64,000 bases of DNA from an uncultured Candidatus Saccharibacteria bacterium (GTDB taxonomy: Bacteria > Patescibacteriota > Doudnabacteria > UBA920). Under the pieces are notes generated by a model. It ran no database searches. It had not been told where the DNA came from and saw only the letters and a list, made by a program, of their open reading frames with translations. The stretch is from NCBI GenBank assembly GCA_964416765.1, contig CAYQEU010000001.1, positions 276,480-340,479 of the forward strand. Direction: 5' to 3'. How positions within the stretch are numbered: position 1 is the first letter of the stretch; every line of letters starts with the position of its first letter. Below are positions 1-45,085 of the stretch, in pieces. Both the position numbers and the translations under genes were made by a program.

Positions 1-525
1 AGTTTCGAAACTATCGATTATTTCTCCTAGTAGCCACAAAACATCCTCATCACTAATTCTCCGCTTTAAAACATCTTTAAGAACAGCATGATCAATATTT
101 GCAAAAAACTTTCTAATATCTCCTTTCAAGACCCAAACTGTACGGGTATTATTGCGCGAAACCCGGCGAGCATAGCTTCTAAAACGATCAATGCCGCGCT
201 GCACACCTTTATCGTAACGGCAAGAGAAAGAATCGAAGATAAATTTTGTATCGTAGAGCGGATACAAAATACGGTAAATCGCATGATGAACCAGCCGGTC
301 AGCAACGGTAGCCTTATGAATATCGCGCGGCTTAGGGTCGTTGATTTTGAAGGCAAAGTACGAACCATGCTTATACGTTTTGTCTCGTAACTGATAATGC
401 AGCGAAATGATATTATCCGTTAAATTTACCGAAAACTTAATAACATCTTTGCGCTTCCGCTTGCCTCGCAAGAATTCCCGCCACGCTATTAGCAAATTAT
501 CAATAGAAATAATATTACTATGCAT
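1..525 (-). CDS. DGR-type reverse transcriptase, N-terminal 175 aa only (gene runs off the window start). Start ATG at 525..523.
   Basis: Manual minus-strand translation gives MHSNIISIDNLLIAWREFLRGKRKRKDVIKF...PKPRDIHKATVADRLVHHAIYRILYPLY...FSCRYDKGVQRGIDR...VLKGDIRKFFANIDHAVL. This lines up with the Bordetella phage bRT N-terminus (NLWDAYRK..GKRRTW, EPKPR..KDRLVQHAL, YACRPDKG, SDFSKFFPSIDRA). It is not in the ORF track because it is partial at the edge. Confidence 0.8.
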   Translation of the reverse strand, partial: MHSNIISIDNLLIAWREFLRGKRKRKDVIKFSVNLTDNIISLHYQLRDKTYKHGSYFAFKINDPKPRDIHKATVADRLVHHAIYRILYPLYDTKFIFDSFSCRYDKGVQRGIDRFRSYARRVSRNNTRTVWVLKGDIRKFFANIDHAVLKDVLKRRISDEDVLWLLGEIIDSFET

Positions 526-921
526 ATGACCAAACTGGCTATTTCGTTTGATATTGCGGGAAAGGCTTCGATTCTTAGCAGAGTCAAAGAGGGATATCTG
601 ATTTGGATGAATTTTGTACCGCATATTCCTAAAGGCGCACGTTATACTATTGGCTCAAGAATTGAAAATAAGTTTCTTGATTTGCTTGAATTATCCTATA
701 TTGCTTATTTTAGCGAAAAAGCTGCCAAAACAGAAAAAATATCCGAGTGTATTCTTACACTTGATACCTTAAAGTTTCTTATTGCCACTGCTTGGGAGGG
801 AAAATTAATTTCTAATAAGCAGTTTGAGGACATAGCCCTCAAGCTAGATGAAGTCGGCAAGATGCTCGGCGGCTGGAAGAAGAATCTCGATAATCCGGAA
901 AAGAAAAACCACAGCCTGTAA
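520..921 (+). CDS. avd: Avd-like accessory variability determinant (four-helix bundle; 23S rRNA intervening-sequence protein family).
   Basis: 133-aa ORF. The C-terminal ISNKQFEDIALKLDEVGKMLGGWKKNL resembles the Avd motif AEVGRILGSWI and the IVS-protein consensus. ARYTIGSRIENKFLDLLELSYIA matches the YGLTSQLRRAA-SI helix. It sits between the RT and the TR. Confidence 0.7.
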   Translation: MHMTKLAISFDIAGKASILSRVKEGYLIWMNFVPHIPKGARYTIGSRIENKFLDLLELSYIAYFSEKAAKTEKISECILTLDTLKFLIATAWEGKLISNKQFEDIALKLDEVGKMLGGWKKNLDNPEKKNHSL

Positions 922-932
922 TAAGGCTGTGG
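909..932. terminator. Hairpin ccacagcc-tgtaataa-ggctgtgg spanning the avd stop codon.
   Basis: 8-bp perfect stem. It lies between avd and the TR. Confidence 0.35.
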
Positions 933-942
933 AAAGAAAAGA

Positions 943-1073
943 CTTTCGAAAACGGAACGCGAACTTGTTGTCGAGATTCCACTTGTTGTCCGGGTTCGCC
1001 CATTTATCGTTGAGCCACAGATCGTCTTCGTTGCGTTCCAGGTTGAAGACGTTCGGGTTGCCGTCGGAATCTG
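943..1073 (-). repeat. DGR template repeat (TR). The sense strand is the minus strand.
   Basis: About 131 bp near-identical to 1396..1526. All ~20 mismatches fall at T on the + strand of this copy, which is A on the target-sense strand. The 3' (minus-sense) 18 nt, cgaaaacggaacgcgaac, is A-free and invariant, as expected for an IMH-like end. Confidence 0.8.
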
Positions 1074-1289
1074 TTTATCGTATAGTGCGCCGTCAATGCC
1101 ACTGCCCGCCTAAAGCTGAGGCTGGGCTGTATTTTATTCGTGATCGCAAATCACCCAGCGACCTACACCAAGTATTTTCTTTTTTGATGACTACAAGCAG
1201 ATCCTCCGCAAGAAGCCTTGGCCGCCTGCGCTCTCAACCTGAATGAGCCTAATGGGTTTTGAAAAGCCGTAGCCGTTCAATGCTACCAA

Positions 1290-1302
1290 TCTAACCTAAT
1301 TA
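1290..1302 (-). promoter_or_regulatory. Putative extended -10 promoter (TGgTATAAT, minus strand) oriented toward the TR and RT.
   Basis: The minus-sense sequence reads aaatttggtataatta, between the target-gene hairpin and the TR. No good -35 is present. Confidence 0.3.
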
Positions 1303-1323
1303 TACCAAATTTTTTTCGAGCGA

Positions 1324-1366: not shown

Positions 1367-3496
1367 CTAACAAGGGACTAAGTTTTTGAGTTTTTCTTGC
1401 GAAAACGGAACGCGAACTCGTAGTCGAGATTCCACTGGTAGCCCGGGCGCGCCCATACACCCGTCGAGCCACAGATCGTCTCCGCGGCGCCCCAGGTCGA
1501 AGACGTCCGGGTCGCCGTCGGAATCTGCGATTTGTTTCATTCCTGTGTAAAACCAGTCGCCTTCCGGCTGATCGAGATTCTGTAAACGATAATTTGGTCC
1601 GAATTCTGCTGGTAGTAATTCCAAACCAAGTTCTTCAGCCCGGGCATATAATTGATCAGTCGTTGGGTAGCTGGTAAAACCAAGATCGGCAACTGTAAGC
1701 CGTACATAGTCTAGTTTTTCTTTGTTTTGTGCGGTTACAAAATCTTTACTATGCAGCATGTCCTTAGCATAGGTACTGATTTGTACGCCAGCTGCCTCCA
1801 TTTCTTTTTCAAGCTGATCTCTTGTTTTTCCGCCGATTTCAACCTGGCCCCGACGAATTTCACGCTCAGGGAATGAAACATAGATATGCTCAATATCCGA
1901 TTGCAGCATATCAATACTAAACTCGCCGATATAAACCTTGGTTGATTCAGTAATCTCACTTTTGCCAAGCGCGATTTCTTGTGGTTCGCACTTAATACCG
2001 GCAACGATTCTGATAATTTTTGCGGCATCTGTTTTAGGCATTTCGGGAGTCAATTCCATATCGCCTAGCTTCAAGTAAAAATCACTCTCTTCGGGATTAA
2101 AATCACGGAAATGAACTTCTCCACGTTCTGTAAGCACATGGTAATCCTTAACTTTGATATTACTCAGTTCGCTCTCGGAAATCTTTCTAAAGTCACGAAG
2201 CTGGCCAGTATCAGTTTGCGTGGTACGAAGCTTTTTAAGTGCGTCGATAACGTCGTCATAATAAGGATCATTAGGTTGGAGGTATTCATCATCCTGCTTT
2301 TTCATCTGTTCAATCACTTTGGTTTTGAGGTTATACTCCATAGTAATTACTGGTGTATCACCTTCAAGCCTCCCCGCGCGATTATTGAATTTTGGAGCGG
2401 TGCGAAATGACAAGATTTCGATTTCTCCACGCTTCATTTGGTTAATGTAAGAATCGCTCGTACCGACGCAGTGGCGCATATATTCCGATTCTTCCTCAAG
2501 GTGCGGCATATTAAGCAAGCGAGCGACGTAGTACTTGCCAGAATCAGTCTGTATGAGGTTTTCCCAAGGATTAGACGCTTCGCTATCTCCCATTTCAGCA
2601 CGCGCTTTGCGTATCTCTGCAATTTTTTGCAAGGTCTTTTCTTGGTGCACTTCAAGCAAACGATGGAGGCTTCCTTTATCTGTATTTATAAACTTGGGGG
2701 ACTCGACAATAGCATCAAACAAATCACTTAAGTCGATCGTTTCATTAGAAATAAGATGTCTTGCAAGTTTGAGTTTCAGTATGATTTGCTGGCGCTCGCC
2801 AAATTCAAAGTCTTGCACGCCAGCCAGACGGCCGCTTAAAGTCTGGTAGGCACTATTGATAGCCTGCTCTTTTTGTGGGCGGTTTTCTTTTGAAAATGAA
2901 TTTAGCGTCTGCGAGTATCTCTGATTAAGCTCGCTAATATACTTATCTTCAAATGCTTTTCTGCGCTCTGCTTCTACCTGCTCGACTGACTTTTCTTCAG
3001 TTAGAGCTTTCTCATAAAAATCAACTGAGTACCCTGCCATGTTGTCCGTGCGAAGCCGTTCAAAGCCATACCGCTCCAGCACATGGTTTAATCGGTCATT
3101 CCAGCCGTGAAAATTCAGGCGGAGGTAGCCTTGTTCTCGAGCGTACTCAATAAAACGAGGAATCTCCCGCATGGCATTGCGGCCCGTATTACGCGTAGTG
3201 CCGAAGTACTTAATATACGCTTCGCGAGGAATAAAATCTTCACATGCAATGTAGCCAATGATTTCATCTTGACTACCACTTATGAGTTTGTTGAGCGGAT
3301 GGCCGTTTTCTAAAGTATGAATAACATCCTCTACGGCCATAGTGCGTATGGCCTCATCGACCTCAGTGATGCCGAGTGTGATTGCACGGATAGCATCTTT
3401 TTGTTCTTCAGTAAGTTGGAGGCCGCGCTTTTGTTCGACCTGTTCTTGTTCCTCGGTATACAAGGGAGCGGGAACTTCTCGATTTCTAGGGTTCAT
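1367..3496 (-). CDS. DGR target protein (709 aa). The N-terminal ~650 aa have no recognised domain. The C-terminus is a CLec/FGE-like variable ligand-binding module holding the VR.
   Basis: Long ORF whose C-terminal codons are the VR. The TR-encoded equivalent ADSDGNPNVFNLERNEDDLWLNDKWANPDNKWNLDNKFAFRF has the AAC-codon-rich signature typical of DGR variable regions. The N-terminus has no signal peptide. Confidence 0.75.
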   Translation of the reverse strand: MNPRNREVPAPLYTEEQEQVEQKRGLQLTEEQKDAIRAITLGITEVDEAIRTMAVEDVIHTLENGHPLNKLISGSQDEIIGYIACEDFIPREAYIKYFGTTRNTGRNAMREIPRFIEYAREQGYLRLNFHGWNDRLNHVLERYGFERLRTDNMAGYSVDFYEKALTEEKSVEQVEAERRKAFEDKYISELNQRYSQTLNSFSKENRPQKEQAINSAYQTLSGRLAGVQDFEFGERQQIILKLKLARHLISNETIDLSDLFDAIVESPKFINTDKGSLHRLLEVHQEKTLQKIAEIRKARAEMGDSEASNPWENLIQTDSGKYYVARLLNMPHLEEESEYMRHCVGTSDSYINQMKRGEIEILSFRTAPKFNNRAGRLEGDTPVITMEYNLKTKVIEQMKKQDDEYLQPNDPYYDDVIDALKKLRTTQTDTGQLRDFRKISESELSNIKVKDYHVLTERGEVHFRDFNPEESDFYLKLGDMELTPEMPKTDAAKIIRIVAGIKCEPQEIALGKSEITESTKVYIGEFSIDMLQSDIEHIYVSFPEREIRRGQVEIGGKTRDQLEKEMEAAGVQISTYAKDMLHSKDFVTAQNKEKLDYVRLTVADLGFTSYPTTDQLYARAEELGLELLPAEFGPNYRLQNLDQPEGDWFYTGMKQIADSDGDPDVFDLGRRGDDLWLDGCMGAPGLPVESRLRVRVPFSQEKLKNLVPC
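1396..1526 (-). repeat. DGR variable repeat (VR), at the 3' end of the target gene.
   Basis: The counterpart of the TR with N at the TR adenine positions. It lies inside the last ~45 codons of the 709-aa ORF and is 1 nt longer than the TR between anchors. Confidence 0.8.
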
Positions 3497-43792: not shown

Positions 43793-43977
43793 CACTCGCA
43801 ACTTCCATAACTTCAACCATTGAGCCCGGATCGACCTTTAAAGTCTTTCCGGGTTCTTTGTTTTATCGGGCGCAATTTGGTGTGGACATAAAGCCGACGC
43901 CTATAAGAATAAGCAGGCCAGTAAAATAAGAAGTTTTTGCGCTGCCTGTCGTTTTATGCTATAATTTATGCACAATT

Positions 43978-44131
43978 TAATATTATCCAGAGTGGCGGCG
44001 AGGGAACTGACCCCGCGACCCGCCCGGCAACCTCTGTTTGTGCCCTTGGCATAAGCAAGCTGGTGCCTCATTCAGCCCGCAAGGGAAAGATAATTGGAAT
44101 ATCTACTTCGGGCGTTTGTAGCCCGTTTTTT
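43978..44131 (+). ncRNA. SAM-I (S-box) riboswitch with an intrinsic terminator, upstream of metK.
   Basis: uuauccagagUGGCGGCGAGGGAacuGaCCC..GacCCgCCCGGCAACC...GGUGCcucAuuCagcccGCAagggAAAGAUAA matches the SAM-I consensus (UUAUCAAGAG, GGxGGAGGGA, CCCGGCAACC, GGUGC..AA.UCC.GCA, AAAGAU). Terminator hairpin cgggcg-tttgta-gcccg plus UUUUUU at 44109..44131. Confidence 0.8.
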
Positions 44132-44149
44132 ATTTGTAATTTTCTAAAG

Positions 44150-45085
44150 ATGTTAAAGACTGCTGAGTTTATTACCCCCAGGCACCCTGACAAAATTTGC
44201 GACCTCATCGCGGATACTATTTTAGACGCGTACTTAGCTGGCGACCCGGCCAGCCGGGTGGCAGTGGAAGTTTTGGGGGGTCATGGCAAAATTATGATCA
44301 CCGGGGAAGTTACTTCCCATACCCATCCCGAAGTGGAAAGCCTGGTCAAACAGATTGAACCAAACTGTGAAGTGGAGGTGCGCCTGGTTAAACAGAGCCC
44401 CGAAATTGCCCGTGGCGTGGATATTGGCGGCGCCGGGGACCAGGGGATTATGGTTGGGTACGCCTGCCGTGACACCGAAAATCTGATGCCCTTGGAATAT
44501 GAGCTGGCGCGCAAGCTATGCCAAGAGCTATACGAAATTTACCCTTTTGACGGCAAAGTCCAGGTGACGATTGAGGGCACCAAGGTGCAGACCGTGGTCG
44601 CCAGCTTCCAGAACGCGCCAACAGGAGATTTGTTAAAACATGTTCAAGCGTTTTTGCCGGCCGAGCAGTATTTGATAAACCCGGCGGGGGACTGGACCCA
44701 GGGCGGCTTTGACGCGGACTCGGGGTTGTCCGGCCGCAAGCTCGTGGCGGACAGTTACGGGCCGCAGGTCGCCATCGGCGGCGGGTCATTTTCGGGAAAG
44801 GATTATACCAAAGTTGACCGCAGCGGGGCGTATATGGCCCGCCGTGTCGCGGTCGATTTTTTAAAAAAATACAATTGTCAAAGTGTAACAATACGGCTTG
44901 CCTATGCGATAGGTAGGGTGAATCCGGTAATGGCAGTGGGTTTGTTGGATGATAACCGTTTTATACCGGTAAACGGTTACGACTTAAGCCCAACAGGCAT
45001 CAAGAATGCACTTCGTCTCGAGCAAGTTGCATACGCCACCACTGCGAACTGGGGACACTTCGGTCGCGGTTTCAACTGGGACTGA
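44150..45085 (+). CDS. metK: S-adenosylmethionine synthetase (short form, 311 aa).
   Basis: HPDKICD, GAGDQG and GGGSFSGKD motifs. Start at the Met after the riboswitch. Confidence 0.8.
   Translation: MLKTAEFITPRHPDKICDLIADTILDAYLAGDPASRVAVEVLGGHGKIMITGEVTSHTHPEVESLVKQIEPNCEVEVRLVKQSPEIARGVDIGGAGDQGIMVGYACRDTENLMPLEYELARKLCQELYEIYPFDGKVQVTIEGTKVQTVVASFQNAPTGDLLKHVQAFLPAEQYLINPAGDWTQGGFDADSGLSGRKLVADSYGPQVAIGGGSFSGKDYTKVDRSGAYMARRVAVDFLKKYNCQSVTIRLAYAIGRVNPVMAVGLLDDNRFIPVNGYDLSPTGIKNALRLEQVAYATTANWGHFGRGFNWD

Follow-up and report, generated by a model that had tools for sequence, protein, structure and literature searches.

A CPR-type diversity-generating retroelement with a reversed avd gene between template repeat and reverse transcriptase, and its likely expression as three units

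How is a diversity-generating retroelement (DGR) expressed when its accessory gene, avd, lies antisense between the template repeat (TR) and the reverse transcriptase (RT) gene? The question is raised by a stretch of 64,000 nucleotides (nt) from an uncultured Candidatus Saccharibacteria bacterium (assembly GCA_964416765.1, contig CAYQEU010000001.1, positions 276,480 to 340,479), referred to here as the window. We find that the region constitutes a single DGR, complete and active, of the type seen in the candidate phyla radiation (CPR)/Patescibacteria, with the architecture designated B3, and that it most likely forms three separate expression units rather than one TR-RT transcript, a reading to which we give a probability of roughly 0.7. 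The parts of the cassette are as follows.

1..525, minus strand: RT N terminus, the first 175 codons; the gene leaves the window at the left edge (full protein, 344 amino acids)
520..528, no strand assigned: start-codon junction, ATGCATATG, with the RT ATG at 525..523, the avd ATG at 526..528, and an extra ATG at 520..522
526..921, plus strand: avd, 131 amino acids, predicted four-helix bundle, isoelectric point 9.1, Pfam bAvd, fold match 4DWL
943..1073, minus strand: TR, 131 nt with 40 adenines, from its alignment to the variable repeat (VR)
1396..1527, minus strand: VR, 132 nt, at the 3' end of the target open reading frame (ORF), from the TR/VR alignment
1367..3496, minus strand: DGR target gene, 709 amino acids, with a PcfJ-like central domain and the VR at its C terminus

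Identity and layout of the cassette

The minus strand carries the target ORF, VR, TR, and RT; the only plus-strand member is avd, which separates TR from RT. The original prediction had proposed this placement of TR, RT, and an Avd-like gene, and it is borne out by the coordinates, by profile matches, and by the predicted fold. The plus-strand ORF (520/526..921; 133/131 amino acids) matches Pfam bAvd (PF22296) with 58.7 bits, the cut-off being 40, and NCBIfam DivGenRetAVD with 65.2 bits, which is below the equivalog cut-off of 80 but covers positions 3 to 104 of the 104 in the profile. The AlphaFold model of the protein (predicted local distance difference test score, 85.8) has helices at residues 16 to 33, 36 to 62, 65 to 91, and 97 to 122, preceded by a disordered N-terminal tail (residues 1 to 12). 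Whereas a sequence search of the PDB with Avd gave no match, the top Foldseek match of the model is the Bordetella phage Avd, 4DWL (template modeling scores, 0.75/0.88; root mean square deviation, 1.8 Å), and the other best solved matches are Avd chains in cryo-electron microscopy entries of the DGR ribonucleoprotein. A check for an Avd-like four-helix bundle had been set beforehand as a point on which the proposal could fall; the ORF passed it by family profile, by model, and by the match to 4DWL, and profile and model together indicate that 526..921 is a true avd gene.

The RT matches Pfam RVT_1, and its best NCBIfam match is a group II RT/maturase model with 136 bits, below the cut-off of 300, in libraries that include no DGR-specific RT model. 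A complete RT is available in a public contig (L001, 3966..5000) that is identical to the window over 4591 nt. The full sequence contains LGNLTSQ and YADD, which we take to be DGR-typical motifs. Assignment to the DGR clade is supported by context, with Avd and a TR/VR pair accompanying the RT in 64 relatives.

Relatives of both proteins are abundant, with more than 1000 detectable for Avd and more than 8000 for RT, the closest named ones being nearly all metagenome-assembled genomes (MAGs) of Patescibacteria. Likewise, named Avd and RT homologs (57 to 83% identity) come overwhelmingly from Patescibacteria/CPR MAGs, with other taxa in some record titles. For comparison, 80 loci were fetched from species-representative genomes, yielding 78 distinct loci with upstream sequence, in which RT homologs of 57 to 70% identity adjoin Avd homologs. 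In all 78, RT is head to head with avd, on the opposite strand and directly upstream. A TR/VR pair could be detected in 64 loci, and in every one of these the RT strand carries the TR, which starts 1 to 45 nt past the avd stop and has A on that strand as the mutated base. The distance between anchor residues of the Avd and RT proteins is 56 to 120 nt across relatives (79 in the window), and by these alignments the tight head-to-head packing is a family trait. Every related locus examined has this geometry, which is therefore no accidental arrangement of ORFs.

The original prediction had called the geometry unusual and had proposed a survey of related cassettes. That survey found the same geometry everywhere, and the layout is also a published one. 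In passages of Wu et al. 2018 (Nucleic Acids Res 46:11, PMC5758913), architecture B3 is given as TR-(avd)-RT, with parentheses for the reverse strand, and is reported for 90% of CPR DGRs, among which PcfJ-like targets are listed. The window has the same order of TR, avd, and RT, with avd reversed and with TR and RT on one strand.

A TR RNA with probable signals of its own

Comparison of the related loci points to three elements around the TR, all on the RT strand.

1299..1307, minus strand: candidate TR RNA promoter, TGGTATAAT, a perfect extended -10 box ~220 nt upstream of the TR
1080..1279, minus strand: structured TR RNA 5' leader, six predicted helices, P1 to P6 (RNAalifold on 62 loci, alignment A2)
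899..932, minus strand: TR RNA 3' module, consisting of the stem-loop CCACAGCCT/AGGCTGTGG (932..909) and then UUUUUCUUUU (908..899)

About 40 of 49 relatives have the motif TGnTAnnnT 215 to 275 nt ahead of the TR, in most cases in the form TGnTATAAT or TGnTATACT, and a T-rich/GGTATA block is kept in the family alignment. The predicted leader comprises P1 (1279-1260, with a C(UACG)G tetraloop), P2 (1244-1195), and P3 (1230-1207), followed by P4 (1168-1080), P5 (1153-1141), and P6 (1127-1104). Of its 51 pairs, 41 have compensatory double changes. Pairing holds in 94.1% of the cells, compared to 38 to 47% when the 3' partners are slid by 1 to 3 columns, and the covariation score is 0.613, compared to 0.11 to 0.16; none of 500 column shuffles reaches the observed values. 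Rfam 15, searched with positions 400 to 1600 at an E value of ≤1, has no family for this leader and gave one weak chance match (IS009, 20.6 bits against a gathering threshold of 117). At gathering thresholds, the whole window yields three transfer RNAs and an S-adenosylmethionine (SAM) riboswitch only, nothing relevant to the DGR.

A terminator scan of the 3' module (932..899) reports a terminator-like element with a 9-bp stem, six G-C pairs, and the T-rich tail TTTTTCTTTT; by sequence it has the form of an intrinsic terminator, with a G+C-rich stem-loop and a U-tract directly after it on the transcribed strand. It is terminator-like on the minus strand only, and on the avd strand A-runs flank the stem-loop. 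Of 79 loci, 77 have a stem-loop and U-tract at the equivalent position, and 61 distinct stems are represented among them. The overlap with avd is confined to the last seven codons and the stop codon, the antisense of which is carried by the loop. Synonymous diversity collapses at avd codons 125 to 129, which are frozen as GAAAAGAAAAACCGC, the antisense of the U-tract and stem base, whereas synonymous sites over codons 36 to 124 are free (relative codon entropy, 0.7 to 1.0 of the maximum). The conserved RNA module therefore reaches only ~20 nt into avd, which speaks against a functional RNA complementary to the avd message over its whole length, although passive read-through would be compatible with it.

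A preprint (bioRxiv 10.1101/2023.10.23.563531) predicts stem-loops that bind Avd directly after the TR for 207 of 278 DGRs that contain Avd, those of CPR included, and shows that cis-primed cDNA synthesis by the Bordetella ribonucleoprotein depends on RNA at both flanks of the TR. By analogy, the 932..909 stem-loop is probably such a predicted Avd-binding element, perhaps doubling as a terminator. Judged from its boundaries, the TR RNA looks like a separate RNA of about 400 nt. One of two consequences drawn in the original prediction, a TR-containing RNA antisense to the entire avd mRNA, is disfavored by the promoter-like box and leader that the TR has of its own, by the stem-loop and U-tract in 77/79 loci, and by the unconstrained codons 36 to 124. 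The suggested RNA-RNA interplay of template RNA and avd message finds no support beyond the short 3' overlap.

Still, TR and RT might be co-transcribed, as the original prediction had supposed, with one minus-strand RNA running through the antisense of all of avd, the stem-loop acting not as a terminator but as an Avd-binding or priming element comparable to the Sp region of Bordetella, and the RNA pairing with and regulating the avd mRNA. The Bordetella phage requires a 140-nt segment downstream of its TR, which supplies the primer. In the related loci, pairing of the TR 3' end is stronger when the downstream segment is that of its own locus than when it comes from another (-9.7 versus -9.0 kcal/mol; permutation P = 0.004). 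This weak covariation, which involves the stretch directly after the U-tract, implies that some RNAs, at least, continue past that tract. Co-transcription would also suit the lack of a clear RT promoter and the many relatives without a canonical RT start codon near the conserved N terminus. Against it, the stem and UUUUUCUUUU form a textbook intrinsic terminator, on this strand only and in nearly every locus; avd codons 36 to 124, being synonymously unconstrained, hold no conserved RNA element; and the large conserved RNA scaffold is upstream, not downstream, of the TR. Moreover, passages of Wu et al. 2018 (PMC5758913) indicate that TR and RT need not be co-transcribed. On balance, we regard a single TR-RT transcript as unlikely.

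A hairpin of sequence CCCCC-TTC-GGGGG is present at 1324-1336, between the target stop codon and the TR promoter-like box. It is a lineage-specific insertion, opposite which the family alignment shows a gap, and neither strand has a U-tract; by analogy, it may be a cruciform like that downstream of the VR in some DGRs.

Candidate signals for avd and RT within each other

As the spacing between avd and RT is zero, the signals of each must lie inside the other. Three candidate elements are seen.

510..515, plus strand: candidate avd -10 box, TAATAT, inside RT codons 4 to 6
583..627, no strand assigned: frozen avd codons 20 to 34, VKEGYLIWMNFVPHI, with a relative codon entropy of 0.1 to 0.5 against 0.7 to 1.0 at codons 36 to 124
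707..712, minus strand: low-confidence candidate RT -10 box, TAAAAT, in avd codons 61 to 63 (TAnnnT in 59/78 loci)

On the avd strand, the family consensus reads ...GAnA-TGaTAT(C/T)AT-7 nt-ATG, with the box within RT codons. The box, TGnTAT(C/T)AT or TGnTAnnAT, stands 7 nt before the avd ATG in 62/78 loci, and the TG is found in 74/78. The G of this TG comes from an RT Ile codon, which is ATC in 74 of the 78 loci, whereas the neighboring Ile codon varies freely. The conserved box looks like an extended -10 element that would give a leaderless avd mRNA. The version in the window has lost the TG and the last T, and TAATAT is present two bases upstream, from which we infer a near-leaderless avd mRNA starting just before ATG 526.

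For RT, the antisense of avd contains no conserved extended -10 element, only the TAAAAT at codons 61 to 63, but two patches of avd codons are unusually constrained. Codons 20 to 34 are nearly fixed across the 78 loci (for example, AAA in 76/77, TTG in 73/78, and CAT in 77/78), and their consensus includes an inverted repeat, ATCAAA-GAGGGATA-TTTGAT, the loop of which resembles a Shine-Dalgarno sequence, together with the TTG; one out-of-frame reading from the upstream avd ATG ends at a TGA overlapping this TTG. The stretch may serve RT, as an element of its 5' untranslated region (UTR) or of a promoter, or may contain a site for ribosomes inside avd. An N-terminal extension of RT (from ATG 624..622) was considered as the general cause of the freezing and is rejected, because the frame relation of RT and avd is random (27/27/25) and the constraint is universal. 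The second dip in synonymous diversity, at codons 61 to 65, coincides with the TAAAAT at 712..707. That the two patches are RT promoter or 5' UTR elements is our guess. Of the alternatives put forward in the original prediction, that each promoter sits inside the other gene or that the TR RNA is antisense to all of avd, the first is the better supported, by the box in 62/78 loci and by the frozen codons, and the second is not upheld.

Start codons at the junction

Independent public gene calls place the avd start at 526 (131 amino acids) and the RT start at 525 (344 amino acids). Alignment of the 78 junctions identifies ATG 526 (M-T-K) as the family-conserved avd start, an ATG being at the conserved offset in 66/78, while ATG 520, although in frame with avd, is restricted to the lineage of the window. 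The abutting divergent starts within ATGCATATG (520-528) are thereby confirmed by sequence, gene calls, and alignment; where the original prediction had left the avd start at 520 or 526, the latter holds and the former fails as a family start. In many relatives, the avd and RT ORFs overlap by 15 nt, as avd ATG-N9-CAT, where CAT is the RT ATG on the other strand. The junction of the window is shorter, with CAT directly abutting ATG. Many relatives (e.g., L007, L009, L013, and L105) have no ATG, GTG, or TTG near the conserved RT N terminus, H-I-Y-x-x-I-I-S, and gene callers place their RT starts inside the conserved motif or far upstream through the repeat. In the window RT, an Ile-to-Met change makes ATG 525.

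If the starts were mis-assigned and the genes did not abut, RT would begin further downstream or at ATG 624..622, and avd at ATG 607 or at an internal TTG or CTG. The RT frame is indeed open up to ATG 624..622, callers begin the avd of many relatives at an internal TTG/GVG (products of 98 to 115 amino acids), and AAAGAGGGATAT, which precedes avd codon 25, resembles a ribosome-binding site. However, the IISIDNLL that directly follows the RT M1 is the conserved N-terminal motif, and because relatives conserve H-I-Y-x-x just upstream of it, the RT start is not further downstream, an outcome that the original prediction had named as one that would undo the abutment. A start at 624 would increase the overlap of the genes rather than reduce it. 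On the avd side, helix 1 is set from residue 16 by both the hidden Markov model and the structural model, codons 14 to 19 are conserved at the protein level (the Arg is kept via CGA, CGG, AGA, and CGC), and the upstream ATG is in frame in all three repeat-free lineages. Mis-assigned starts are accordingly a poor explanation, to which we attach a low probability.

Ongoing diversification of the VR

Alignment of the TR (1073..943) with the VR (1527..1396) shows 20 substitutions, 20/20 of them at TR adenines on the minus strand. The VR lies within the last 54 codons of the target ORF (3496..1367), which matches Pfam PcfJ with 31.8 bits. The VR also has one nucleotide more than the TR, GATAAAT in the TR (~1008) corresponding to GGGTGTAT in the VR (~1462), and the target allele is therefore frameshifted within the VR: the last 29 codons (1367-1455) are out of the family frame, and the family ending ...EFxFRxRK...KT* (...WNLDYEFAFRFRKKNSKT*) can be read in another frame. 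Frameshifting TR/VR indels occur in about 3% of DGRs, including putatively functional ones, according to passages of Wu et al. 2018 (PMC5758913).

Direct evidence of activity comes from a contig of another sample, L002, which differs from the window and L001 at 5 of 1430 nt (positions 1419, 1421, 1422, 1424, and 1430) before it breaks inside the VR. All five differences are in the VR at TR-adenine positions. As the two samples differ only there, the element is diversifying in nature; the DGR is active, and diversification of the VR is ongoing in the population. A second lineage (L099 versus L100) shows the same pattern at two VR positions. That the cassette is a decaying remnant, its odd geometry and TR/VR length mismatch reflecting inactivation, is highly improbable: the 1-nt mismatch, the target C terminus outside the family frame, and the degenerate avd promoter-like box would fit such decay, but every ORF is intact, every TR/VR substitution falls at an adenine, the VR alleles of the two samples differ at TR-adenine sites only, and indels of this kind are known from putatively functional DGRs.

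A repeat tract behind the avd start in relatives

In 65 of 78 loci (relatives L007 to L104), a (CT)n tract of 9 to 43 nt lies between the conserved avd ATG and the Avd core, at the equivalent of window positions 535-565; it is replaced by a C-run in 10/78 and by (AC)25 in 1/78. The tract falls in the predicted disordered N-terminal tail of Avd. The window has no repeat tract between ATG 526 and the Avd core and is thus not itself a phase-variable locus. In the 78-locus survey, only its lineage and one other are tract free, as is its nearest relative (RT, 77% identical). Tract length varies even among samples of a single strain. In nine assemblies whose RT proteins and flanks are identical, the tracts measure 19, 19, 21, 27, 21, 25, 25, 27, and 25 nt, and in a second lineage the tracts are 31, 25, 31, and 31 nt. 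Only 23 of 66 loci have the avd ATG in the reading frame of the Avd body, whereas all three tract-free lineages do.

These observations bring up the possibility that the head-to-head junction is a control point for the whole retroelement, where a slipped-strand tract would put the Avd body in or out of frame and so stochastically switch or throttle Avd and mutagenic retrohoming; the lineage of the window would have lost the tract and become fixed in frame and constitutively competent, which would fit its visibly diversifying VR. We offer this only tentatively and consider it rather doubtful. With 23/66 loci in frame, there is no enrichment of in-frame repeat lengths, and in one strain 0/9 assemblies are in frame, so that the data do not separate a phase switch from a noncoding spacer. 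In one lineage, both sampled tract alleles are out of frame and yet the VR differs between samples at TR adenines, which weakens strict ON/OFF gating. We found no link between DGRs and such tracts in the literature searched, which did not cover the main CPR DGR paper (Paul et al. 2017).

A model of expression and the points against it

Under the reading that we favor, the three units would be the TR RNA, avd, and RT. A TR RNA of about 400 nt would comprise, downstream of the -10 box (1307..1299), the leader (1279..1080), the TR (1073..943), and the stem-loop with its U-tract (932..899), which would end the RNA and/or bind Avd. The avd and RT genes would be transcribed divergently from signals inside each other's first codons, avd being read from ATG 526 as a leaderless or near-leaderless mRNA and RT either from a promoter lying antisense to the first third of avd or by way of leaky read-through. 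It would then be the avd and RT messages that overlap, at their 5' ends, and not the TR RNA with avd. Some antisense overlap between transcripts is inherent in the layout. RT and pentameric Avd would bind the structured TR RNA, bases would be misincorporated at its adenines during copying into cDNA, and the cDNA would replace the VR, steps that are established for the Bordetella phage and presumed here.

Several points weigh against this reading. Every promoter, terminator, and start site in it is read from motifs. The avd box of the window is degenerate, and a simple sigma-70 scan for two hexamers gave no promoter for avd or RT, nor one for the TR RNA; the extended -10 motifs emerged only by comparison. 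There is no convincing RT promoter, the TAAAAT at 712..707 being weak. The U-tract may instead belong to a primer-template duplex with the TR 3' end, in which case the RNA would run further into avd. Finally, VR and TR differ in length by 1 nt, and the current target allele is frameshifted.

Neighboring features

Just beyond RT in two unrelated lineages of this DGR family, outside the window, is a large serine recombinase (Resolvase/Recombinase/Zn_ribbon_recom; L001, 891-2198, and L086, 3285-3984), followed in L001 by a DEAD/GpA_ATPase-like gene. Its position beside RT hints that the cassette may be on an integrative element. The SAM riboswitch (43980-44096, plus strand; 47 bits, above the gathering score) is upstream of the ORF at 43937-45085 and is unrelated to the DGR.

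Significance

As first stated, the finding matters little: cassettes of this layout have been on record since 2017 and are the norm among CPR bacteria. The value of the window is as a clean and demonstrably active B3 example, and the comparative work leads from it to testable hypotheses on the expression of B3-type DGRs. If the tract does gate Avd, a hypermutation system would itself be under a stochastic switch. Three by-products deserve attention of their own, namely, the structured leader of the TR, the closely packed putative promoters, and the tract that varies in relatives.

Comparison with known systems

The nearest known system is B3 of CPR bacteria, as described in passages of Wu et al. 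2018 (PMC5758913). The layouts do not differ, and a CPR host, PcfJ-like targets, and frameshifting indels are common to both; the passages searched mention no promoters, abutting starts, TR leader, or junction repeat tract. Outside DGRs, the relatives' (CT)n resembles the CT phase variation of Helicobacter pylori oipA (PMC10564699) in following a conserved ATG, varying in length within a strain, and setting the frame, a tract that the window lacks. Weinberg et al. 2017 (PMC5737381) described RT-associated RNA motifs, RT-1 to RT-19, and proposed a role for them in reverse transcription. Like these, the leader reported here is a structured, conserved RNA beside a DGR TR; it is placed 5' of the TR, in contrast to RT-10, which is between TR and brt of phage BPP-1.

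The Bordetella phage BPP-1 DGR (mtd-avd-TR-brt) shares with the window the RT, the Avd fold, an adenine-specific TR/VR relation, a VR at the 3' end of the target, and a stem-loop just downstream of the TR. In BPP-1, avd precedes the TR and has the same direction, whereas in the window it follows the TR in reverse orientation. The distribution of RNA around the TR differs as well. BPP-1 uses only 20 nt upstream of the TR and the 140-nt Sp segment downstream, while the window element has ~200 nt of conserved structured RNA upstream and only ~45 nt conserved downstream. By analogy, the 5' domain of the TR RNA may act as the scaffold, a part played in the Bordetella phage by the downstream Sp segment.

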